DNA of 64,000 bases from assembly GCA_035221665.1 (NCBI GenBank), contig CM069166.1:9238001-9302000 (forward strand), in the 5' to 3' direction. The DNA comes from Okamejei kenojei. Taxonomy: Eukaryota. Positions 1 through 58,229 of the stretch are shown here, piece by piece. Below the pieces are notes generated by a model. It was not told where the DNA came from, did not search any database, and was given only the letters and a program-made list of their open reading frames with translations. Both the position numbers and the translations under genes were made by a program. Position 1 is the stretch's first letter. Every line of letters begins with the position of its first letter.

Positions 1-320
1 TCGTGTATATGAATGTGAGTTAGTTCCCTTAATGGCTGCCAAGTGCAACTATTAAGTAAATTCAGCATTGGATCAATTGTATGCTTAAAAAACTGTAGAT
101 TGCAAGTTTTAGGCTCCAGATCAGCATACATTTACTAAATTTAATTCTTCATTGGAGACCCATTGGAGTTGCACAAATTCTGAAAAAACATTTACAACCT
201 TCAATATTGTAAGATCACGGGTTTACAGAAAATCAAATTCCACATAAATGCTATTTGCATGCAGCAGTCCTGAACTACCCCTATGAAAAATGCAAAATGA
301 TAATTTTGTTTTTAGCATAC

Positions 321-478
321 CTAGAGCTTCAATCATTCCCCTGATATCAGCCAGCAAATACTCAATTTTGTAGTCACTCCGGTCTTGCGGTGCATCAGAA
401 TCCCCGTATCCACGCAGGTCCATAGCCACCACTCGGTACTTACTTTTGAACTCACGCAGCTGGTAACGCCACGAATAC
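321..478 (-). CDS. EPHX3: Epoxide hydrolase 3/4-family gene, coding exon 3 (gene continues beyond window start)
   Basis: AG/GT-bounded 158-nt exon encoding (W)YSWRYQLREFKSKYRVVAMDLRGYGDSDAPQDRSDYKIEYLLADIRGMIEALG, with the alpha/beta-hydrolase DLRGYG motif. Symbol assigned from adjacency to BRD4. Confidence 0.9.
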
Positions 479-743
479 CTGTGACACAAACAACAATTGT
501 TCAACGCAGCAACAATTAACAAGCTAGGGCCTGCGGCACACTTTGGATGAATACATGCAGATATTGCCCTTGGTTCAATGTACCCGCAGCCACATACTGA
601 AGAATCAATAAGGGCTTTCATTCCTATAAACAGCACAGTATTTTTTCTTCGTCCAGAAAGTTTTGATTCCTTGCTGTTAAAAAAAGTTTGATTTTCAGTG
701 GTTACACAACCAAGGAGATGTATTCATCAGGATGAGTCAGGTT

Positions 744-5112: not shown

Positions 5113-6325
5113 AAGACACAAAATGCCGGAGGAACTCAGCGGAACAGGCCCTGAGAATCAGGGGAGAGGGAGACACAGATAAAGAAGGGTATAGTGTGTG
5201 GAAATGAGAAATCAAGAGAGATCTGGGTCAAGGAAAATATAGAATCGATCATTGTTAGCTAAGAGAAGGTGACATCAAAGCAACGCAAGCTTGGGCAGCT
5301 TCCAACCCAGTGGCATGAATATTGATTTCTCTAACTTCAAAGTAACCCATGCATCCCCTCTCTCCCCCCCCCCCCCCCCCCACTCAATTCATACCATCCT
5401 CAAATTGTTGAGTCTCATTGTCTAAAGGGCCTGTCGCACTTACGTGTTTTTGGCACGCAAATTACGCGACCTCGTGGTCGCGTTGAGCCGAGACGGCCAA
5501 GCGAAGGTCGGGTGCGATTACATGCATACGCACAGCCATGTGGAGCATATGATGTCATTTGAAGATGGACACAAAGCTGGAGTAACTCAGCGGGACCGGC
5601 AGCATCTCTGGAGAGAAGGAATGGGTGACGTTTCGTGTCGAGACTTCTTCAATCCGAAAAGGGTCTTGACTCGAAACGTCACCCATTGCTTCTCTCCAGA
5701 GTCCCGCTGAGTTACTCCTGCATTTTGTGTCTATCTTCCATTTTCTTGGCCCTGCTCTGGGAGTAGAAGTGGGGGCAGATCCGGACCGTAACAGCCGTGA
5801 GCCCCAGGCCGAGTTTGGCTATCGTTTGCCTGCTTCTGCTGCTGTTGAAGGCGAGACGTTGCGTTGCGCCAGTGTCTTGGGCCTGTCCCACTTATCCGTC
5901 AGTTCCACGACAGGCCGTTGGCAAAGATTTTGTTCACTGCAAGAATTTCGGAGCCCCGCGCGATGTTGGGACCGGATCCGCACAACTCCATACCCCTCCG
6001 CGCTTCTAAGTGGGACCGGCCCCGCACGGCCATACGGTGCCCGTACGCCTCAAGCAACCACGAGATCGCGTAATTTGCGAGCCAAGGAGGTGTGAGTGGG
6101 ACAGGCCCTTAACTCGTTCTCACCCGGCACACAGCGAACAATGGCCAGTTTTCTTTATCATTGTTACTTTTTTGCATATCTTTCATTCATTTGTTCTATA
6201 TACCTAATTTCTCTTTCCCCTGACTGTCTGAAGAAGGGTCTTGACTCACAACATCACCTATTCCTTTTCTCCAGCAATGCTGTCTGACCTGCTGAGTTAC
6301 TCTAACTTTAATGTCAATCTTTGTG
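5113..6325. mobile_element. Penelope-like element remnant in inverted arrangement, hosting nested insertions
   Basis: GIY-YIG C-terminal remnant LGSFQPSGMNIDF at about 5291-5330; pLTR-type ends in opposite orientation at 5113-5150 and 6225-6320. Confidence 0.7.
5426..6109. mobile_element. PIF/Harbinger-type MITE (contains a Penelope mini-palindrome at 5568-5731)
   Basis: TIRs AGGGCCTGTCGCACTTAC / GTGAGTGGGACAGGCCCT with 3-bp TAA TSD; a second internal pair of TIR-like motifs at about 5879 and 6006. Confidence 0.8.
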
Positions 6326-13683: not shown

Positions 13684-14880
13684 CTAAATCACAAAAGAAA
13701 TGTATGAGAAAACAATCACGTACGGTTTGTCTATTCTGTCAGTAACTTAAAACTTTATTTTTTTCCAGAAATCTTCAAATGATTGCTTGCTATATAGCCT
13801 CACTAATATAAGAAACAGGCAAAGTCAATCTTTAGCGGATCAAAGGGCAAAAGTAGAGTTAGAAAACAGACTGGCAGAACAGACTTAAGAGGCTGTGGTC
13901 TGCCCTGCTCCGGTTTGTTAAATGGCAAGGGGGTTGTATTTCCAATGTTTGCTCAGAATTTCTAATGCCTAGTCGAGGGCCATGCCCAATGGATGCATGC
14001 ATCAAGGTTAGTTTACTCGAACATTCCTTTCTAAACTCAATGAGGATCAATAGAAGACCCCTATTCATAACCAGGAGGTCAAAACTTTAAAGTGAAGGGC
14101 AAACAATATATTTTAATGACAAACTTGTTAATTTGTCAACTTCACCTCTGCATTGATAACCCAAGAGAACACAGTCATTATCAGCTATAAAATAATGACA
14201 TAGTGGATCCTTAAATAAAGATCTTAGCTCTCCCCTCTTTTAGTATCACATCCCTTTTTTGTATCCATCAGTGTTTAACTCAGGGGCAGGTAAAAATCAA
14301 ATCCCCATCAACTAGCCAGAGTCCCTTCTGTTTCAAATATTTTTAGATGGTTCTTCTCACTTCACCATTAAAACTATCTTAAACTCGCTAAATGGTTGCT
14401 GGTCAAAAATTCAAAGTATCACCTTAATATATCACGATTTCAAATGCTAATCAGTATTTTCATACTGACCCTAATTTTTGCAATTTGTGTATTTAATCAT
14501 CAGTGTCCAATGAAAACAATTATGTAAAAAAAAATTTTTTCACCAACTCCCAAAGGTACTAATAAGTCCCAAAGGTGTACTAATATTCCCAAAGTTACCA
14601 ATATTGCACAAGTGCACTGGCCCTTCAGTAACAACTTATTTAACACACACTGCAGAAATGTTGAACCTATTCTATACTTTTACAATATTCATACACAAAA
14701 TTCTTCTGGCTGATATCAATGGATTCCATATCACAAAAAAAAATTAGGGACATTTTTTCCCCTCTGTAAACCCACGGCAAACTTTCTAAAATGTTATCAC
14801 AAACTAATAGGCCTGGTTCTAAGGGACTGCAAATCTTGTTCAGCAATCCATCCCATCTACGAGTTGCACTGGGAACTTAC

Positions 14881-15169
14881 TGCTTCCTTCCGCCTTCGTT
14901 CTTGCTCCCGCTTCCTTGCTAGCTCTCGCTGCTGATCCAGCATTGACTGTGAGNNNNNNNNNNNNNNNNNNNNNNNNNNNNNNNNNNNNNNNNNNNNNNN
15001 NNNNNNNNNNNNNNNNNNNNNNNNNNNNNNNNNNNNNNNNNNNNNNNNNNNNNNNNNNNNNNNNNNNNNNNNNNNNNNNNNNNNNNNNNNNNNNNNATGC
15101 TGCTGCTGTCTTCTCACCTCCTCGTGAGCCCTCCGAGCACACTCCAAAGCATCCTCCTCATCCCGACTT
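14881..15169 (-). CDS. BRD4: BRD4 penultimate coding exon (contains the N-run)
   Basis: (R)SRDEEDALECARRAHEEVRRQQQH-[N]-SQSMLDQQRELARKREQERRRKEA; ccag acceptor and GTAAGT donor. Confidence 0.93.
14954..15096. other. Undetermined sequence (143 N) inside a BRD4 coding exon
   Basis: Run of N at the position of the Gln-rich tract. Confidence 0.99.
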
Positions 15170-29451: not shown

Positions 29452-30783
29452 TACGCACACACACACACACACACCAAACAAAACTAAGCAGAGGGTGGTA
29501 ATTTATTTAAGTGCTTACGCTGCCAAGTGCGACGGCAAATATCAAAAGATGCAATCACCTCCATCCCACCTACATCAATTTCCTCTTTACATTAGCAGAC
29601 CGTGTTAAAATATTTGGGAAAAGCATCTTTGACCATGAATACTTGTAACAATAGGTAAGTATAAAGCAGGTACAATAGCCAATCCTGAGCTTATTGCAAT
29701 TACTTTCAATTTCCAAGAACATACATGGATGGTAAATACCATTTTGTGATGTATATGCTTAAGTTCAAATCAACAATTTACAGCTTTTCTCTTACAATTT
29801 TAACCAAGTAACATATTTTAACATACTTCTATGAAGCTTAATGAGAAACATATTGTTCAACGCTCAAGGGTTGTTTTTAGAAAATATGGTAAAAGATTAA
29901 TCAAAGAATCAACTTTTAAAGGCAGGGTGCAAGGGAAGTAACTGATTTAGGAAGGACATCTGGATATTAAGCCTCTGACAACTTGGAAGACAAAGGGAAT
30001 GGAAAAGCAGCCATATTTAAGGAACAAAGATGTTAAACATAGTTTTGGTAGTTAACTCAAAGCAGACTGTCATTTTACAACAGACCATGGATGCAGTTTT
30101 TTATATCAATCACCTTTTCACTACATAAATATTAACAACTCTTTAATGGCTGACAGTTTCACAGGCGTCTTGCTTGATGAACGAGCAAAATCTGAAGTAA
30201 TCCATTAGGCTGTGACTTGTTCAGATTATAGGATCATAACCAACTTCCATTTTGTGGAAGTGAAAAGTGAATACACAATTTCTATATTACATCATGACAA
30301 TACTTCAAGGATACTTGATGAGGTGCTTAACGACATCATGAACCTAATGCAAGAGGTGTCATATAAATGCAAACCTGTTTTTTATTTAAATATATTTTGA
30401 CCACACACAGGTCTAAATTTTCAAAAAATGTTTTTAACCTTAGGCCTCTTCCTTCTACACTTGATCAAATGGATGGGGGAAATGTAACAAGTGTATCAGG
30501 AAGTGGTGAATAGGAGCCAAAGTGTTGATGTCCAATAAGAGGGGGAAAAAAATCAGGCAAGAATAAAATAAGATATGGTGGAAATGAGCAAGAAAATACA
30601 CCTGGAAACCTTTGGTTCACAAAACACCCGCTCAATGTTTATATTCAGGATAATGGCTTCATTGAACTTCAAGATTAAAAAGATAATTACAAATTAGAAA
30701 TTTATATTGACAACTTTAGGACCTACATGGTTCTAATATAGGAACATCTGGATTGTCCAAAACGCAATATCAACATAATTATA

Positions 30784-30872
30784 CACAAAAATGCTGGAGA
30801 AAATCTGCGGGTGCAGCAGCATCTATGGAGCGAAGGAAATAGGCAACGTTTCGGGCCGAAACCCTTCTTCAG
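30784..30872 (-). mobile_element. Penelope-derived pLTR fragment with minimal hammerhead core
   Basis: Minus strand CTGAAGA-A-GGGT TTCG GCCC-GAAACGTT; flanked by TAATTATA on both sides. Confidence 0.7.
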
Positions 30873-36500: not shown

Positions 36501-36709
36501 TTTGAATTAACCAAGTTAATTGTGCTGATTATTCAAACCACTATTATCTTCTTGCAAAAATGTACTCTTAAAAACAAAATTGACGCTTGAACTTGCCTCA
36601 GTTTTTAGTCATTGGACTTAAATGACTTAATTTAAATTGGATTTGTCTGCACTCAAGCCACAAGTTTAGCCTTGACAGTATCTTCCAGCAACATGGCAAA
36701 TGTCCAACT

Positions 36710-38140
36710 AGTCAACCAATCCCTGCAAACCTGTACTGTCCCTGCCTGCTGCAAAGTCTCCACTATTGTCCCTGTACCCAAAAAGACAAGGATTACTGGT
36801 CTTAATGACTACAGGCCTGTCGCACTGACCTCTGTAGTCACGAAGACCCTTGAAAGACTTGTACTGGCCAAGCTGAAAAATATCACAAACACCCTGCTGG
36901 ACCCTCTGTAGTTTGCATATCAGGCCAATCGATCAGTGGATGAAGCAGTCAACCTAGGCCTGCACTTCATCCTCCAGCACCTAGACCACCAGGGACCTAT
37001 GCAAGGATTTTGTTTGTTGATTTTAACTCTGCATTCAACACTATTTTGCCAGAGCTACTACACTCCAAACTCTCCAAGTTGACTATGCCTGAACCCCTCT
37101 GTCAGTGGATCACCAACTTCCTGTCACACAGGAAGCAGAATGTGAGGCTGGGAAAGCACGTCTTGGACCCTTAGACCTTCAGAATAGGAGCACCGCAAGG
37201 CTGCGTACTATCTCCTCTCCTTTACTCTCTCTACACCAACGACTGCACCTCCACAGACTCCTCTGTCAAGCTTCTCAAGTTTGCGGACGACACAACCCTG
37301 ATTGGACTGATCCAGGATGGGGAGGAATCTGCTTACAGACAGGAAGTGATACGGCTGGCGTCCTGGTGCCTTCGTAATAACCTGGAGCTCAATGCTCTTA
37401 AGACAGTGGAATTGATAGACTTTAGGAGAACTCCCCCTCCCCTCGTCCCACTCACCATCAACATCACAGTCACATCTGTGGAGTCTTTTAAGTTCCTTGC
37501 AACCATCATCTCCAAGAACCTGGAATGGGTGGCCGCCATCGACTACACAGTAAAAAGGCCCAACAGAGGTACATCCTGTGGCAGCTGAGGAAACACAATC
37601 TGCCACAGGCAATGATGGTCCAATTCTATTCTGCCATCATAGTCTGTCCTCACCTTCACCATCATGGTCTGGTTTGGCTCAGCCGCCAAGCACGACATCC
37701 GAAGGCTGCAGTGAATCGTCCGATCAGCTGAGAAGGTTGTTGGCTGCAACCTCCCCCCCCCCCATTGATGAACTGTACACTGCAAGGGCCAGGAAGCAAG
37801 CGGGCAAGATCATCTCTGACCCCTCTCACTCTGGCCACTAACTCTTTGAAGCACTTCCCTCTGGAAGGCGACTCCGGACTGTCAAAGCCGCCACAGCCAG
37901 GCATAAAAACAGCTTTTTTCCCCCACGAGTAGTAGCTCTACTCAATAACCAAAAGTCTGTAGCCTCATTTTGCTCTGGTATTTTATTTAATTCACATGTT
38001 TAAACTCTGTTTTATTATTAATGTTTTATGTGTCATTCTTAATTGTCACTGTTTGTCGTGTTGTTACTTGCGAGCGGAGCACCAAGGCAAATTCCTTGTA
38101 TGTGTGCATACTTGACCAATAAACGTATTCATTCAATCAA
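36710..38140 (+). mobile_element. Rex1/Babar LINE, 5'-truncated RT pseudogene
   Basis: [68 protein letters not shown] motifs with stops and frameshifts; AATAAA plus ATTC-repeat tail. Confidence 0.92.
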
Positions 38141-40504
38141 ACAAAATCATATAATGCATTGAGCATGGTGGAGTGTCAGAGATCCCATAAATCAATAGAT
38201 GATTGATGCAGAAACATTAATTCGACGGCTCTCCCACAACTGCAGTGTGCAATCAAGATCCTGCTTCACCTCACTGTTTCTTGTGGAGCCCAGTGTATTT
38301 ATGTCTGCTTACACAACAACATTGTTCACTTTGTGATGCCCTGCAAAACTTGGGTGTATTCCATACAGTCTAAATGGCTACTGGGAAGAGACCTCTTCTT
38401 TCAGGTACACCAAAACCTCTTATTTGCAGAATCAACTGACTTTATAAATCATTTTAACTTTTAACAAATGGCTCTCAAAAGCCTCTCTCGCTCACAATAT
38501 GTATGATAGTTTGAGAAAGTAACAATTCGCCAATAAAAATTACCCAATGATCCTTATTCCCAATCTGTTGATTACCAAGTCGAAATACCAAGATTAATGG
38601 TTTAATGTTTAAGATACAAGCAGTAAAAATGCCTACCATAATTTTATTCATGCACAGATACATTGATGTTCCACGAGTTATGAATTGCTAACTGAAGTCA
38701 TTTGTGTCACATTTAAAATCCCAAGACAGTTTTCGCAGAATTTTCTTGAGGTTTCTGCTGATGTTTACCACTAACATTCCTCAGCTGCAGCAAACACTAC
38801 CCACACTCCACCTTCCAAATACTTTCCCCACTATGAAGTATTTTCTTAAAACACCATCACACTATTTGGATGGAATAACTGCTTGAAATGAAACTACTCA
38901 ATTTGCAGACAAGGGCAACAGGCTGAGATGAGTAAACAGCATTGTGTATAAGAGTGGATAGCTTGTTAGGATCATTAAAATCAAGTTGAAGATATATTGA
39001 CGAGGGAAATTAAAAAGATAAAGGGCTTTCTGATTGCATGTGGTCATGTTAATTATTTATGTCTTGTGATTTTCATTCTCATGTACTGGATCTGCTGTAT
39101 ATTTTCACCAGAGCTTTGTGGAAAAAAATCAGTAGGAATAGAATATTTATGAAAGTTATGGCAATAGTTTATCATGTGATTTTTGATGGGACATCTGGTT
39201 TAAATTGATCATTTTTGATGTATAGCCAACTTACCTGTGTAGGTGGTCACCAAAGCAATGAGGTATATTGCAGGCATAGAAATGTGCAAGATAATTCAGG
39301 GACCTATGCGGACCTGGACAGTCTAAAACTCAACCCAGCAAGCAAACACATTCTTGTTTGTAAACTTGTTTTATTTGAGAAATAATGAAAATAGAAAACT
39401 ATACAAAGTAAAAAAAATACATATAATTTAACCCCAAATATAGAAAGTCAACATGCATTGGATACATATTAAACGAGAAAGTAGAAAGAGTAAATAAAAT
39501 ATACCACAAAAGCTGCATTTCTGGTAACAAATATCCAGTTAATAGTTCATTTTGAAAGGGGCACACTTAACAAATGCTACAGTCATCAGCTAAGGATGTT
39601 GGCGAGTTCACTTAAGAACAACCTCTTCCACCGCATATTCAGGCAACGATGTTTAACAACTTTTTAAGTAACTTTCTGGGATTTCTGAGGCTAAGAGGCA
39701 GTTAAAAAACATCCATAAATGCATTTACTCAGCAGTTCACACTTCAAATAAAATCCAGCTTTATTGCAAACCAAGCCAAGTCTCTGTAATAACTGAAAAT
39801 ATTTAAACAATCCTAACTATGGTACATTTAGTTCTGAAAGATTGATTATGTACTTTATGCCTCAAATCTAGTTGAAGTAATGACGAGGCACATTTGGGAG
39901 AAGGGGAGGATATATCTAATTAGCCTTTGGAAATACCAATTCCCATGTACAAACTCAACATTATTGAGATCCACATGAATGCTGTATTGGGAACTCATTG
40001 CGGATTCAAGCGACTTGGAAAGGATGTGTTCAAATCTCCAAAGAAATGGTTTGCAGCCATGCCAATTCCAAAGCCCATTATCACTATGTTCCTGCTTGTA
40101 CTATCAACAGTTTGCAGCAAATAGATTGAGGGATAATTTCAATGGACTCTGCCCTTTGCATTCCTTCAAAGGTGACACTTCAACTCTTTGGGAGCAAAAA
40201 TAAACTATGGAATATTAAACGCTTGGATTCCAAGCACAGGCTAACATTCCTAATTTCCCAATAAACTGAATTCCACAATGCAAGAGACTGTGATGGAACC
40301 AAGTCATGCAACATTATAAGAATAGAAGAGTGGCAGTTGTCTAGAATGCCTGGGAGGGTAAAGGTTCCTAAATGATTCACTGGTTGGCTTGAGGGATGTC
40401 ATGATTAAGGAAAGAATGTGGTCTAATATCTCATGCTTACCAATACTATCAACATTCTTACGTCAGAGTCCAGCATTGACCTGTTATGAGAGTACAGGCA
40501 AATC

Positions 40505-40733
40505 TAAGGTAGACACAAAATGCTGGAGTAACTCAGCGGGACAGCCAGCATCTCTGGAGAGAAGGAATGGGTGGCGTTTCGGGTAGAGACCCTTCTTCAT
40601 ACTGAGACTGAGAAGGGTCTCAACTCAATACTTCACCCATTCCTTCTCTCCAGAGATGCTGCCTGTCCCGCTGAGTTACTCCAACATTTTGTGTCTACCT
40701 TCAATTTAAACCAGCATCTGCAGTTCTTTCCTA
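40505..40733. mobile_element. Penelope-derived palindromic mini-element
   Basis: About 100-bp arms in inverted orientation centred on two back-to-back degenerate CTGAAGAAGGG cores; flanks ACAG(G/T)CAAATC. Confidence 0.8.
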
Positions 40734-41148
40734 AACAGTCAAATCCAATTTGCTGTAGCCTCAAGAACACACCATTCAGTGCAATGGTGCAATTTTGCTC
40801 TCACGTATCCATCATTTGTCGCATGCAATACTGATTAGGGTTTTCTCCTGTTGTGAACGGGATAAAAATATCTGGAAGGGACTTCCAATTTTCCGAATGA
40901 TATACAAGCCCATTTCAGCCAATTGAATTGATGCTGGCTCAGAGTAACCAATTGCTCCTGTACCTACTTTCTCCACATTCTCATCAATTTTACAACCCAC
41001 CTACCCATTTGGGGCGATCTGTAGCAGCCAATTAACCTACCAACTGTGGGAGGGAACTGAAACACTTGGGGAAAACCACGTTCATAGGTGTAATATGCAA
41101 CCTCCAAACAGACAGTGCTGAAGATCAGGGCTAAATCCAGATCAATGG

Positions 41149-41352
41149 AGTAGAAAGGAACTACAGATGCTGGTGTATACTGAAGATAGACACAAAGCGT
41201 CAAGTAACTCAGCAGGTCAAGCAGCATTTCTGGAGAAAAAGGATGGATGATGTTGGGTCTGAAGAAGGGCCCCGATCCGAAGAATCACCCATCCTTTTTC
41301 CTCAGAGATACTGCCTGATCTGCTGAGTTGCTCCAGCACTTTGTGTCTATCA
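41149..41352. mobile_element. Penelope-derived palindromic mini-element inserted into an old HE1-type SINE
   Basis: Inverted arms; 12-bp TSD CCAGATCAATGG at 41137-41148 and 41353-41364. Confidence 0.8.
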
Positions 41353-47300: not shown

Positions 47301-47638
47301 TCTCTGTTGAAGCTGCTTTCTAATTTAAGTGCAACTTAAGCTCTTTTTATGGCTTTCAATGGTCACTGTCAGCATTATTGCACTTTTTATATGCAGCTTA
47401 AACAGACTAGCGCTAGAATTTCTTCCAGACATGTTGTTCTTTTAACACAAGGAACTACTGGTAAAAAGCTCCATTAATCTGGCAAACTGTATGTATTGCA
47501 GTGATAATTAGAAGTCACTGGTTGTCGGTTGGAAACTACGATGGGTGGTTTACAGAGAGTACGTGGGGCAGAGGGGAAACAGACTTTGCCAGCGCCAGGC
47601 TAGCAACAGGCTCAATTACTGAAAGAATTGACGCTAAC

Positions 47639-47761
47639 CTGTTTCAGAGTCGTTGCTCTCAGAGGAGCTGGAGTCACTGCTACTGTCTGACTCAGAAGAA
47701 CTGCTGCTGCTTCTCATCCTTGAAGGGCCTCCCACATCCATGCTTACGTCATGCTTCTCAG
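47639..47761 (-). CDS. BRD4: BRD4 SEED (Ser/Glu/Asp-rich) exon
   Basis: 123 nt, phase 1-1; (A)EKHDVSMDVGGPSRMRSSSSSSESDSSSDSSSSESNDSET, matching mammalian [37 protein letters not shown]; tacag acceptor, G|GTTAG donor. Not in the ORF track. Confidence 0.92.
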
Positions 47762-48324
47762 CTGTACAAAGAGAATTATTGTGTAAGTAACAGGACTAAG
47801 TAATCTGCTAAACATCAATACTGAAACTAACTGGCTTATCTACAGTTTTAAGTTGCAATTTATCTTTGGGTTTTGTTGATTACTATCAATTATGGGCACT
47901 ACTTAAGACAATGTTGTACATTAATACATTACGAAGGAGTCTCAATTCTTACTTAATCTATTCTTAAAATGATTTAAACAAGTTCAATAATTGTCATTTC
48001 AACTCAATTTGTAGAATCAGCCAAAATGAAGTTAAACTGGTTAACCTCTAACTGTTCAAGTTAATTAGGTGTCAAACGCAATTTACTGCAAACCACCATC
48101 AGGGCACATATGAGCAAATGGACTCAATTCATAACGCTACTTCTCCCTGTAGAACATTACACAAACACTCATTTCATAACAAGCAAATTAAACATATTCT
48201 GTGTTAAAGAATGAAACTCTAAAATATTTAACCGATGGATAATTTAATAGTTTTCTCCTAATATAAGTGGATAGATAATAATAATTAAAGAAACAACAGA
48301 TGTATGACAAGGTCTATCACAAGG

Positions 48325-51628: not shown

Positions 51629-52029
51629 TAGGGAGTACCCACGTTCTTCTACTTTTCCCAATGATTATTGGATAATCATACCTGGCCATAATTAGCACCC
51701 CAAAAGTAATCTCAAAGCAATGACACAAATTCTTGCCCCACATTGATTCATGCGTTGCGAAAAACACAGCAACTGGACTCCTGCTTTTTATCTATCCATT
51801 TCCCATGTCAGACTACACACATCTGTCACAGATGCAGAACATTGCTAAACAATGAAAATTAATGGCTTGAAATGTACAACTTGTTGCAACTATTGCCAAC
51901 TGTCATTTTCAGCAACTACTACATCTGAACTAAACAGCAGGGGCCCAAATGAAGCAAGTCAAGCTAATGGTTAAACACAGCTAGTCCAGACTTAAAATGC
52001 ACGTGAGGCAGACTTTGAGAGACTTATTG

Positions 52030-53177
52030 TGTAAAAATGAACTGCAGATGCTGGTTTAAACCGAAGATAGACACAAAAAGGTGGACAGCTAACTTAGCGG
52101 GACAGGCAGCATCTCTAGAGAGAAGGAATGGGTGACATTTCAGGTCGAGACCCTTCTTCAGACTGGTTAGGTATAAGGCAAACGAGAGATATAGACGGTG
52201 ATGTGGAGAGATAAAGAACAATGAATGAAAGATATGTAAAAAATAACGGTGATAAAGTTTGTAGGGTGAAAATGAAAAGCTAGTGCGACTGGGGGGGGGG
52301 GAAAGAGAGAGAGGGAGAGAAAGAGAAAGAGAAAGAAAAAAGAGAAAGAGAAAGAGAAAAAGAGAGAGAAGTTTGAAGTGAAAGAAATCAATATTCATAC
52401 CACTGGGCTGTAAGCTGCCCAAGCGAAATATGACATGCAGTTCCTCCAATTTGCGTTTAGCCTTACTCTGTTCTCTGTCATTGTCAGAGTGAGGCTAAAT
52501 GCTGTTTCCTTTACTATCTTTACTTTTTTGCATATCTTTCATTCATTGTTTTTTATCTCTCCACATCACCGTCTATATCTCTCGTTTCCCTTAGTACCAG
52601 ACTGATTCCTGGGATGGCACGACTTCCATATGAAGAAAGACTGGATAGACTTGGCTTGTACTCGCTGGAATTTAGAAGATTGAGGGGTGATCTCATAGAG
52701 ACTTACAAAATTCTTAAGGGGTTGGACAGGCTAGATGCAGGAAGATTGTTCCCGATGTTGGGGAAGTCCAGGACAAGGGGTCACAGTTTAAGGATAAGGG
52801 GGAAGTCTTTTAGGACCGAGATGAGAAAATCATTTATCACACAGAGAGTGGTGAATCTGTGGAATTCTCTGCCACAGAAGGTAGTTGAGGCCAGTTCGTT
52901 GGCCATATTTAAGAGGGAGTTGGATGTGGCCCTTGTGGCTGAAGGGGTCAGGGGGTATGGAGAGAAGGCAGGTACAGGATACTGAGTTGGATGATCAGCC
53001 ATGATCATATTGAATGGCGGTGCAGGCTCGAAGGGCCGAACGGCCTGCTCCTGCACCCAATTTCTATGTTTCTATGTTTCTATCCCTAACCAGTCTGAAG
53101 ACCCAAAATGTCACCCATTCCTTCTCTCCAGAGATGCTGCCTGAACCGCTGAGTTAATCCAGATTTTAGTGTCTACA
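52030..53177. mobile_element. Penelope-like element 3' end with inverted pLTR, interrupted by CR1
   Basis: Minus-strand GIY-YIG terminus KLEELHVIFRLGSLQPSGMNIDF (about 52385-52455); inverted copy of the 3' region at 52520-52592 and 53084-53177; 12-bp TSD AGAGACTTATTG at 52018-52029 and 53178-53189. Confidence 0.85.
52595..53083 (+). mobile_element. Young CR1 LINE 3' end nested in the Penelope element
   Basis: Open ORF2 terminus (track ORF 52614-52985) and TTTCTATG tail repeats. Confidence 0.93.
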
Positions 53178-54409
53178 AGAGACTTATTGACAGGAGAGCA
53201 AGGGTCAGGAAGAAAAACGTACCTTTCAAGGTGAGGATCATGAGTGATTAAGATGGAAGACGTTAAGAGAACAGATAGCTGTTCATAATGGCAACATTTC
53301 TATTTGCAGGGGTTAGGAGATCAATGGAACAAAATGTTAGTTTATGTGCAGATCTTCCATAAAACTTCCAAACCGTGTGTGACGTGTTTAGTCATGACAA
53401 AGTAGAGTTAAGAAGAATATTCAGTAACATGAACAGTGACTGTGCAGATCCCTGGATTTGTTTGACTACATTAAAGATATTAGAGAATTTTCAAAGATTA
53501 CTTACATATTATTACTTTGGATTTCACCTTACCCAATGGTTATTGATTTAACATACATCATGATACTCAAAATGATGGCATAGTCCCATGTACTTTAAAC
53601 TATTGCAGTCCTGCTTTCTCTTCCTAGCTATCATTTTCAAAATCTTTGATGGTGCTTTAAAAAAAATCTCTGATGTTTTATTCTTTTTAGAATTTACCTT
53701 CCCTGAGAAATTGCTTGAACAAATTCTCTAGTTAAATCTCCAAATATTGAACTGTTCATTTTTATCTGACCCTATGCTATTAACAAAGTATCTAAAGCAC
53801 TTTCAATCAGCTGGCACTGGAGACTCACATTAACACGGTCTCTTACCACAATATTCCTTTATATAACCAGGCAAAAGTCAACGGGAGGGACAAGAAATAC
53901 GGCAACCAGAAAAACTTCACTTCCACATAAGATACCTTACAACATGGTAATCAAGAAAACTTAACCAAAGAACAAGGAGGATTATGCTTTCGTACATTAA
54001 TATATTTCTTAAATAACTGATTTTAAAAATATTTGCATCATTCCATTCAATGACATAAAACACGCAAGACCATTTTACTTTCACTTAATTAGTTGTTAAG
54101 TATAACAATAGCTAAAAACGTAGCATTACAGTGTGGTTCCACCCTCATTGTTTGAGCATAATCATGATTTAAAACATTTATCAACACTGGACATACTACA
54201 GCCAAGCACTATTATAGCTTTCTGGGTTTCAGTAGGAATAACTGTACTGAGATCTAGAGTACAAGACCATTCCAACTTACCCACACCACAAAAAACACAA
54301 GGCCTTAGGGCAGAGAGGCAATTGCTGCATCCATATCATCATCCATGCTGATACAAAATTGTTCAGCTCAAGCATGGAACGAAACCCAAAGGAAAACCTT
54401 TTTATTTTT

Positions 54410-55745
54410 TTGAGAGGCCAGGATTTATTGTCCATCCCAAAATACCTTTGAAGATGAGGAGGTGAACAAGTATTTTGAACTGCTTCAGAGATTTTGGTGA
54501 AGGAACTCCATTTTTGACGATGACTACCAGGATTTAGAACCAGCAATGATGAAATAATAGCAATACACTTCCAAATCTGAATGATGTGCAGTACAAAGGG
54601 GAAACTGCACATGCTAATGTCCCATATGCCTAACGTCCCTATTCTGCTTGGTGATGAGAGGTTTTTGGCTTGGGAAGACCTTTCCTCGTGGTCCCGATGA
54701 AAAACTGCAGTGCATTTGTGGATGGCACATGGCGCAGCCACCGATCCAGGAAAGGGAGAGAAGTCCAACACACTCCCGAATTGCGATAAGGCTTCAGGAG
54801 ATGATTAGTTCACTGAAAGATAATCGTATCTTGAGCTGGTCTCATAACCACATTATTGATGTGGCTGGCTCTTTTGATCAATGGTTGTGAGTGGAGTCAC
54901 CAAAGTAAAACCAAACTTGGGCAGCAGCCATTTATCGGCACTGTTAATTAAAGATTGAGAGTAGGCAGTAATGTGAAATCGTATTTCTTTTTGTGAACGG
55001 TATATGTGGTCATTTTGCCACAAGATCAAGCAGATACCAATGTTGCATCTGGACCAGTCTGAAGAAGGGTCTCGACCCGAAACGTCACCTATCTCCTTCG
55101 CTCCTTAGATGCTGCTGCACCCGCTGAGTTTCTCCAGCTTTTTGTGTACCCTCGATTCTCCAGCATCTGCAGTTCCTTCGTTAACACTTTACTCCACTGC
55201 GATATCTCCTCAAGGTATGCCTACTTTGAAGAAGTTCTCCTCCTCCCTACTAAAAACACCAGTCTGAAGAAGGGTCTCGACCTGAAACGTCGCCTATCTC
55301 CTTCGCTCCTTAGATGCTGCTGCACCCGCTGAGTTTCTCCAGCTTTTTGTGTACCCTTGCATCTGGAACAGCTTGGCTGGAGACAGTTCATCAACTGCAG
55401 TTCTACAATGAGGAGAACTGGAGCCAGCAGCCTTTATTATAGCCATTGTTCTCGGTGAGTTTCATGTCATATGAAGTGAATCAAATAGATTGAACACGTC
55501 TTCTGTGAAGGTTTGACCATGAAAAGTATCATTATCAATGGCAAAGGCATTGGCCTCTTCTTCAGCACTAACGTACTAGCTGCCCACCATTGTCAAGAAT
55601 GGGGATATACTATGAGCTGTTGTTGCATCCCAATAGCATCTTCCTGTCCACCACCATTCGTGACTAAATGTGTTTGGATTGCAAAGATTTGATCTGATGG
55701 TTGAGAGACTGCTTACTGCATGCTGTCTAACAAATAAGTAGTGTT
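54410..55745 (-). mobile_element. Old degraded LINE fragments
   Basis: Pattern resembling common elasmobranch LINE sequence on the minus strand; no intact frame; family not determined. Confidence 0.4.
55054..55356 (+). mobile_element. Retrozyme-like non-autonomous Penelope derivative: 1.5 tandem copies of a 205-nt unit, each with a minimal type I hammerhead core
   Basis: Direct repeats start at 55054 and 55259 (CCAGTCTGAAGAAGGGTCTCGACC(C/T)GAAACGTC); 11-bp TSD TTGCATCTGGA at 55043-55053 and 55357-55367. Confidence 0.75.
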
Positions 55746-57994: not shown

Positions 57995-58229
57995 GTAGTC
58001 AGGAACGGAAGATGCTGGTTTACATCGAAGATGTAAACCAGTAAACCACAAAATGCTGGAGTAACTCAGCGGGACAGGGAGCATCTCTGGATAGAAGGAA
58101 TGGGTTGATGTTTCAGGTCAAGATCGTTCTTCAGTCTGAAGGGTCTCAACCCAAAATGTCACCCACTCCTTCAATCCAGAGATGCAGCCTGTCCTGCTGA
58201 GTTACTCCAGCATTTTATGTCTAACTTGC
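57995..58229. mobile_element. Penelope-derived palindromic mini-element nested in a MITE
   Basis: Inverted arms around CTTCAGTCTGAAG; 11-bp TSD TTGTCAATTTC at 57984-57994 and 58230-58240. Confidence 0.8.

Follow-up and report, generated by a model that had tools for sequence, protein, structure and literature searches.

Typical of Penelope-like elements (PLEs) are copies in partial tandem, inverted copies at the 5' side and, at one end, a tail of 30-40 bp (PMC8557442, PMC3846280), together with target-site duplications (TSDs) of 8-10 bp and non-coding sequence kept between the pseudo-LTRs (pLTRs) (PMC3846280). The minimal hammerheads of PLEs are described as having an extra nucleotide after A9, palindromic positions 15.2-16.2 and no loop 3, and as cleaving poorly even when presented as dimers (PMC4209133). 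According to the work on purified Poseidon PLE protein, uncleaved RNA is the main template, the ribozyme of Poseidon_Ac cuts only with protein present, hammerhead mutants leave in vitro insertion unaffected, and the tail of Poseidon_Ac separates two sites at which reverse transcription starts (PMC11167929). What the hammerhead does in PLEs is considered open (PMC8557442, PMC11167929). Among the animal retrozymes, circRNA was shown for repeats with canonical hammerheads (PMC7229834). A 2026 survey makes the case that the retrozymes of animals are non-autonomous PLE sequences and found them in the single chondrichthyan genome sampled (1/1), with an average family consensus of 363 bp; it also accepts minimal motifs with an MFE below -5, and observed in vitro cleavage of one Xenopus dimer in nine (bioRxiv 10.64898/2026.07.22.740005).

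The window analysed here, a continuous stretch of 64,000 nucleotides, contains a 314-bp insertion with an 11-bp TSD. It comprises the following features.

55043 to 55053, no strand: left TSD copy, 11 bp, matched within the window; the single copy at the empty site of organism C
55054 to 55151, plus strand: upstream pLTR copy, 98 bp, minimal hammerhead and body, 98% identical to the downstream copy
55057 to 55088, plus strand: minimal type I hammerhead 1, with its core from C55059, extra A55066, stem II 55067-55070/55075-55078 and ACGU at 55082-55085
55152 to 55188, plus strand: PLE 'tail', 37 bp, behind the upstream copy only; other window copies stop before or after it
55189 to 55258, plus strand: spacer, 70 bp, with a repeated part (55189-55243) and a rare linker (55244-55258)
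55259 to 55356, plus strand: downstream pLTR copy without tail, by sequence comparison, forming the 3' end of the insertion
55262 to 55293, plus strand: minimal hammerhead 2, predicted cleavage after C55291
55357 to 55367, no strand: right TSD copy, 11 bp, from the window match and the empty site of organism C

The sequence-only reading had noticed two 98-bp direct copies with about two mismatches, 205 bp apart, and this description holds: the starts of the copies are spaced by 205 bp and exactly two positions differ (55078 C against 55283 T, and 55087 A against 55292 G). Both differences are transitions in CpG context, one per copy, suggesting that the copies may have been identical at insertion. 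The 11-mer TTGCATCTGGA at 55043-55053 and 55357-55367 occurs twice on the plus strand of the window and not at all on the minus strand. The element between the two 11-mers measures 303 bp, or 1.48 units of 205 bp, and reads, in the terms of its family, as a pLTR (98 bp), a tail (37 bp), a spacer (70 bp) and a tail-less pLTR. The earlier idea of a tandem array did not stand, as there are only 1.48 units and TRF reported nothing for the insert under either its default settings or the parameters of the 2026 retrozyme survey.

Contigs of four public runs (four of the 24 listed) were compared with the window over 54760-55659; all of these data are contigs. In organism C (run X10), a contig of 2,603 nt matches the left flank up to 55042 and then passes directly to 55357-55659, the join lying at record positions 1908/1909. 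The 314 bp are absent from this empty site and a single 11-mer is left, which confirms the insertion and the TSD that had been proposed around it; over the flanks, 31 mismatches in 586 positions (5.3%) and two gaps separate the contig from the window. Contigs of organism A (run X1, which may be the window's own sample) cross both insertion junctions without a difference. Since the site is filled in organism A and empty in organism C, the insertion appears to postdate the split between them. For organism B (run X6), the listed contigs of the unique flanks end at 55044 and restart at 55449. Over 55045-55448 this run ceases to match the window to the left and to the right of the insertion (loose stretches of 20 and 31 letters, with 55390-55419 uncovered), and a different rearrangement at the insertion site is possible in this organism.

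Each copy carries the minimal hammerhead core with an ACGU palindrome that had been read from the sequence, namely CUGAAGA, an A, stem II formed by GGGU and ACCC(U) and closed by CUCG, then GAAAC and GUC. In hammerhead numbering, we take this to be C3-U-G-A-A-G8-A9, the extra A, stem II, G12-A-A, A15.1-C and G-U16.1-C17. The minimal type I features are thus all present, with an extra nucleotide after A9, palindromic 15.2-16.2 and no loop 3. Cleavage is predicted after C55086 and C55291, which is 2 nt upstream of the sites suggested previously (after 55088 and 55293), while the suggested monomer length was right: the predicted cleavage-bounded monomer, 55087-55291, has 205 nt and a GC content of 48%. 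Stem I had been called weak, at about 2 bp; sequence and folding likewise give hammerhead 1 a helix I of 2 bp, and it is 2 bp in both dimer halves with no further pair. Hammerhead 2 has a G.U at the first (basal) pair of stem II in place of the conserved G-C.

The two ACGU palindromes could form a shared stem III of 4 bp. In ViennaRNA predictions, which take no account of tertiary contacts or protein help, the forced active dimer fold lies 18.6 kcal/mol above the MFE and the shared stem III has a pair probability of 1e-4. The circular monomer folded no better than shuffled sequences (z -0.09), and neither did the MFE folds of the whole element and of the single hammerheads. Against the survey limit of -5, the hammerhead MFE is -5.5 for copy 1 and, depending on the bounds chosen, -2.9 or -5.3 for copy 2. 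A search of Rfam listed seven weak matches and no hammerhead family at E<=10. In an alignment of 12 decayed copies from the window, 91.7% of the stem II cells are paired, and no covariation measure exceeded shuffles. The hammerhead motif is therefore present, and its activity is probably low without help.

Elsewhere in the window, the following features are relevant to the origin of the insert and to its genomic context.

14860 to 14952, minus strand: BRD4 C-terminal exon (PF17105 BRD4_CDT, E 8.6e-11)
30782 to 30872, minus strand: solo pLTR with a direct repeat of 8 bp, the closest other window copy, 90% identical
52029 to 52467, minus strand: PLE remnant with GIY-YIG C-terminus (tblastn), pyrimidine-rich 3' region, sister hammerhead pLTR (core at 52161) and tail

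BLAST with the 205-bp unit found 19 pieces in the window, 17 of them besides the two copies of the insert. The 3' ends of these 17 fall at unit positions 88-104 in 13 cases and at positions of at least 125 in four, and the two groups, about 35 nt apart, reproduce the PLE 'tail' pattern; one of the 13 early-ending pieces also has tail sequence behind a short insertion. None of the 17 starts at the cleavage site. Over 133 nt, copy 1 shares 79% identity with the copy linked to the GIY-YIG end (52167-52036), and its identity with 30872-30782 is 90%. Direct repeats of 7, 8, 11, 12 and 12 bp surround five other family insertions in the window, in agreement with the published TSDs of PLEs; of seven other loci tried for direct repeats, two gave only 6-mers, and one further locus gave none until it was read as part of a larger insertion at 52029-53178. 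Four head-to-head pLTR pairs were found (5560-5745, 40501-40737, 41151-41352 and 58001-58227), whose centres (5650, 40604, 41257 and 58135) coincide with the 5' edge of the hammerhead, and in three of the four one arm has a tail and the other does not. Contigs of three runs contain opposite-strand joints at 55058/55260. Both the pairs and the joints match the inverted insertions of PLEs. Run X18, which bears the label 'RNA? (probably DNA)', contains pieces of the family with little of the flank, and is not taken as evidence of expression. Exact DNA patterns from the spacer and from the hammerhead had no match in metagenome_contigs, genome_contigs or viral_contigs, none of which are animal genomes, so that this result is uninformative on the family. 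Altogether, the insert is an ordinary, fairly young insertion of a very abundant repeat family.

The tie to Penelope machinery suggested by the sequence-only reading was strengthened by the remnant at 52029-52467. Its GIY-YIG frame (52467-52372, minus strand) matches shark proteins containing reverse transcriptase and GIY-YIG domains in tblastn, with E values down to 7e-10, and a sister hammerhead pLTR with body and tail lies 211 nt downstream of the GIY-YIG end. The remnant belongs to an inverted PLE insertion delimited by a 12-bp direct repeat (52018-52029 / 53178-53189) with a tail-less arm on the plus strand. A second GIY-YIG remnant, at 5291-5347, is likewise upstream of a sister pLTR. 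This link is seen for the sister subfamily (79% identical) and not for the insert's own subfamily. Another repeat, at about 52600-53085, later broke the inverted insertion; its frame resembles the end of a CR1-type LINE.

The 43-aa GIY-YIG remnant gave no candidate in a word-based protein search, and HMMER with the same remnant gave 10 matches, of which seven align directly and three are unrelated. The latter (P0002-P0004) were set aside as repetitive proteins. Seven were looked up, and five of them carry names, the species being whale shark, a skate and a stingray. Two longer relatives, P0013 and P0014 (whale shark and zebra shark), have GIY-YIG Pfam matches with E values of 9e-5 and 2e-3, and P0013 also has an RVT_1 match (E 9e-5) and a CxxxxCxxC linker. 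A Cys-rich linker between reverse transcriptase and endonuclease is found in P0013 and P0009, both shark relatives of the window GIY-YIG remnant. By eye, P0014 closes with a translated hammerhead-like stretch that is similar to that of the insert. The CxxxxCxxC linker is regarded as a mark of Neptune (PMC3846280, PMC8557442), and together with the GIY-YIG and RVT_1 relatives it makes it likely, from sequence comparison, that the host is a cartilaginous fish and the repeat family a Neptune pLTR. Two further matches, P0007 and P0008, are public gene models (for the neuromedin-U receptor of a skate and for an isoform of stingray VKORC1L1) which include the GIY-YIG tail of the element, reflecting either exonisation or an annotation error.

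The BRD4_CDT match is on the minus strand, so the ribozyme strand is antisense to BRD4, as had been stated before; the hammerheads of the insert could not form in BRD4 pre-mRNA, which would carry the opposite strand. A Ser-rich exon-like frame is located at 47637-47795, and from 47.8 to 64 kb no exon for an ET domain or a bromodomain could be recognised, suggesting that the upstream BRD4 exons lie beyond the window and that the insert is likely to be in a long BRD4 intron whose upstream exon is outside it. Hammerhead-like cores are also found on the BRD4 sense strand, at 30872, 52161 and 58134 (all minus). All three are altered close to the cleavage triplet or in a stem, and the persistence of these altered cores in BRD4 introns is in keeping with single copies having little activity. 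Within a BRD4 intron, 36636-37841 (plus strand) contains disrupted reverse-transcriptase frames that belong to another non-LTR element. At 223-723 (minus strand) there is an alpha/beta-hydrolase exon (PF00561, E 6e-8), which is probably part of the epoxide hydrolase gene found next to BRD4 in vertebrates.

Summed contig depths, to be read as relative ranks and not as copy numbers, were about 32 in the flanks, 5e6-2e7 in copy 1, 7e5 in the spacer core (55210-55239) and 422 in the linker (55249) for run X1, with the same ranking in X6 and X10. The part 55189-55243 is repeated in organisms A, B and C, whereas the linker 55244-55258 is rare. The insert might be seen as a one-off chimera, produced by a template switch, by capture of an unrelated repeat between pLTRs or by two adjacent solo pLTRs; in rotifers, unrelated DNA captured between pLTRs within one TSD has been reported (PMC3846280). 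Such an origin would suit a linker so much rarer than its neighbours, as well as the many contigs in which other spacers join the tail to the hammerhead (55178-55187 to 55260-55265). However, organism C, whose site lacks the insertion, has contigs that span both tail-spacer (55159-55235) and spacer-linker-hammerhead (55207-55279, 7 differences in 73). The unit is therefore not the one-off truncated tandem that the sequence-only reading had named as the outcome that would speak against it. In addition, the copies are 98% identical to each other and at most 90% identical to other window copies, and a single TSD encloses both. We regard a one-off chimera as very improbable.

The spacer is likely to be a truncated internal region, of which it would retain the start, from a longer element. 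Its segment 55203-55230 is predicted to form an 8-bp hairpin, and an ATG at 55217 opens a frame of 16 codons. A protein search with this frame, the one frame of the insert that was searched, with the start of a Neptune ORF in mind, returned 21 candidates and no match at E<=10, which is weak evidence either way. A splice-donor-like AG/GTATG is found at about 55213 and a CAG ahead of each hammerhead, but these would give an intron of 49 nt; in Drosophila Penelope, the end of an intron is located at helix I (PMC4209133).

Taken together, we propose, with a probability of roughly 0.7, that the insert is a short non-coding derivative of a Neptune-type PLE, likely copied in trans by the reverse transcriptase and GIY-YIG endonuclease of that PLE from a linear RNA that was likely uncleaved. 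In this model, an internally deleted element with two pLTRs would be transcribed, and the PLE protein would nick the target with an 11-nt stagger. Of the two PLE start sites, reverse transcription would use the inner one, which would explain why the 3' copy has no tail, and would then cross one unit and halt at the 5' edge of the upstream hammerhead, the point where the solo and inverted copies of the family begin. Afterwards each copy would have gained one CpG transition. The hammerheads have likely been inherited as passengers and would show little activity unless assisted by a protein.

The sequence-only reading had taken the more-than-unit length as the product of reverse transcription around a circular template. 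This does not follow, because the order pLTR, tail, internal region and pLTR is the ordinary layout of PLEs as described in PMC8557442 and PMC3846280, and a circle is unnecessary to explain it. The DNA expected from a linear template with two pLTRs is the same as that expected from a religated circle: in either case the ribozyme stays whole across the cleavage site and the copies can be identical, so that the near-identical copies fit both and DNA alone cannot separate the two routes. A true non-LTR retrozyme, in which dimeric hammerheads cleave themselves to release a 205-nt circle that PLE reverse transcriptase copies 1.5 times round, would be consistent with two intact tandem cores having a 4-bp ACGU/ACGU stem III at their disposal, with copies separated by two CpG-context transitions only, and with the presence of both unit junctions in organism C (X10). 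The unit length of 205 nt, the GC content of 48%, the absence of coding homology and a TSD longer than 4 bp agree with the elements described in PMC7229834, and a circle model has been proposed for PLEs themselves (PMC4209133). Nevertheless, the insert has 1.48 units only, no multimer is seen in the window and the 70-bp spacer occurs in none of the 17 other window pieces. Helix I of 2 bp, a copy 2 without the conserved basal G-C of stem II, an active fold predicted to be rare and a circular monomer folding like its shuffles all speak against this route, as do the eight of nine Xenopus dimers that stayed uncleaved in vitro (bioRxiv 10.64898/2026.07.22.740005) and the poor dimeric cleavage reported for minimal PLE hammerheads (PMC4209133). 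We therefore consider a true retrozyme unlikely. That a 205-nt mini-Neptune unit underwent protein-assisted dimeric cleavage by its minimal hammerheads, circularisation and reverse transcription past unit length seems to us decidedly unlikely. A circular RNA from the insert would be possible, if unsupported.

The insert is useful as a presence/absence marker and is a clean example of PLE anatomy. Its 303 nt make up a natural template with two ribozymes that could easily be tested with purified PLE protein, and circles, if found, would make the insert matter more. If the circle reading were true, the insert would be a retrozyme circularising via a stripped-down PLE ribozyme, with no helix III of its own and a helix I of 2 bp; as a natural substrate of small size whose empty site is known, it would allow a circular-template origin of the partial tandems of PLEs to be tested.

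Our literature search retrieved no paper on this specific family, although the supplementary family tables of the survey may list it and Repbase/Dfam were outside the search. Compared with the metazoan non-LTR retrozymes, the insert has a similar 205-nt non-coding unit (against a range of 150-450 bp) with GC below 50%, a type I core in each unit, a TSD of more than 4 bp and a likely derivation from PLEs (PMC7229834; bioRxiv 10.64898/2026.07.22.740005). In contrast to the dimers to multimers that TRF finds in retrozymes, it has 1.5 units and, in spite of its two hammerhead cores, gives no TRF call under the parameters of the survey. The retrozymes with proven circRNA have a canonical type I hammerhead, with a helix I of about 6 bp, a short helix III and loop contacts (PMC7229834), whereas that of the insert is minimal, with 2 bp in helix I, no loop 3 and no Rfam match. 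Of the proposal of a chondrichthyan retrozyme family, what stands is a PLE-derived, hammerhead-bearing unit whose junctions occur elsewhere; the minimal hammerhead and the 1.48 units do not agree with it, and the class has already been reported in one chondrichthyan.

Non-autonomous Chlamys PLEs such as MRC1 are also short and non-coding, with pLTRs, head-to-tail insertions and 3' ends common to autonomous PLEs, but they belong to green algae and to another PLE clade, and are described as mostly without hammerheads (PMC8557442). The closest likeness is to the Neptune-clade PLEs and their pLTR-only derivatives, which share the minimal hammerhead in a pLTR, the partial tandem, the 30-40 bp tail at one end, the TSD of about 10 bp, the inverted 5' copies and the GIY-YIG upstream of the sister pLTR (PMC8557442, PMC3846280, PMC4209133, PMC11167929). 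The insert differs from them in having no ORF and an internal region of 70 bp, and an autonomous partner of its exact subfamily was not found in the 64-kb window or by the protein searches. The insert is thus a short non-autonomous PLE derivative, 'retrozyme-like' and of an already known kind.
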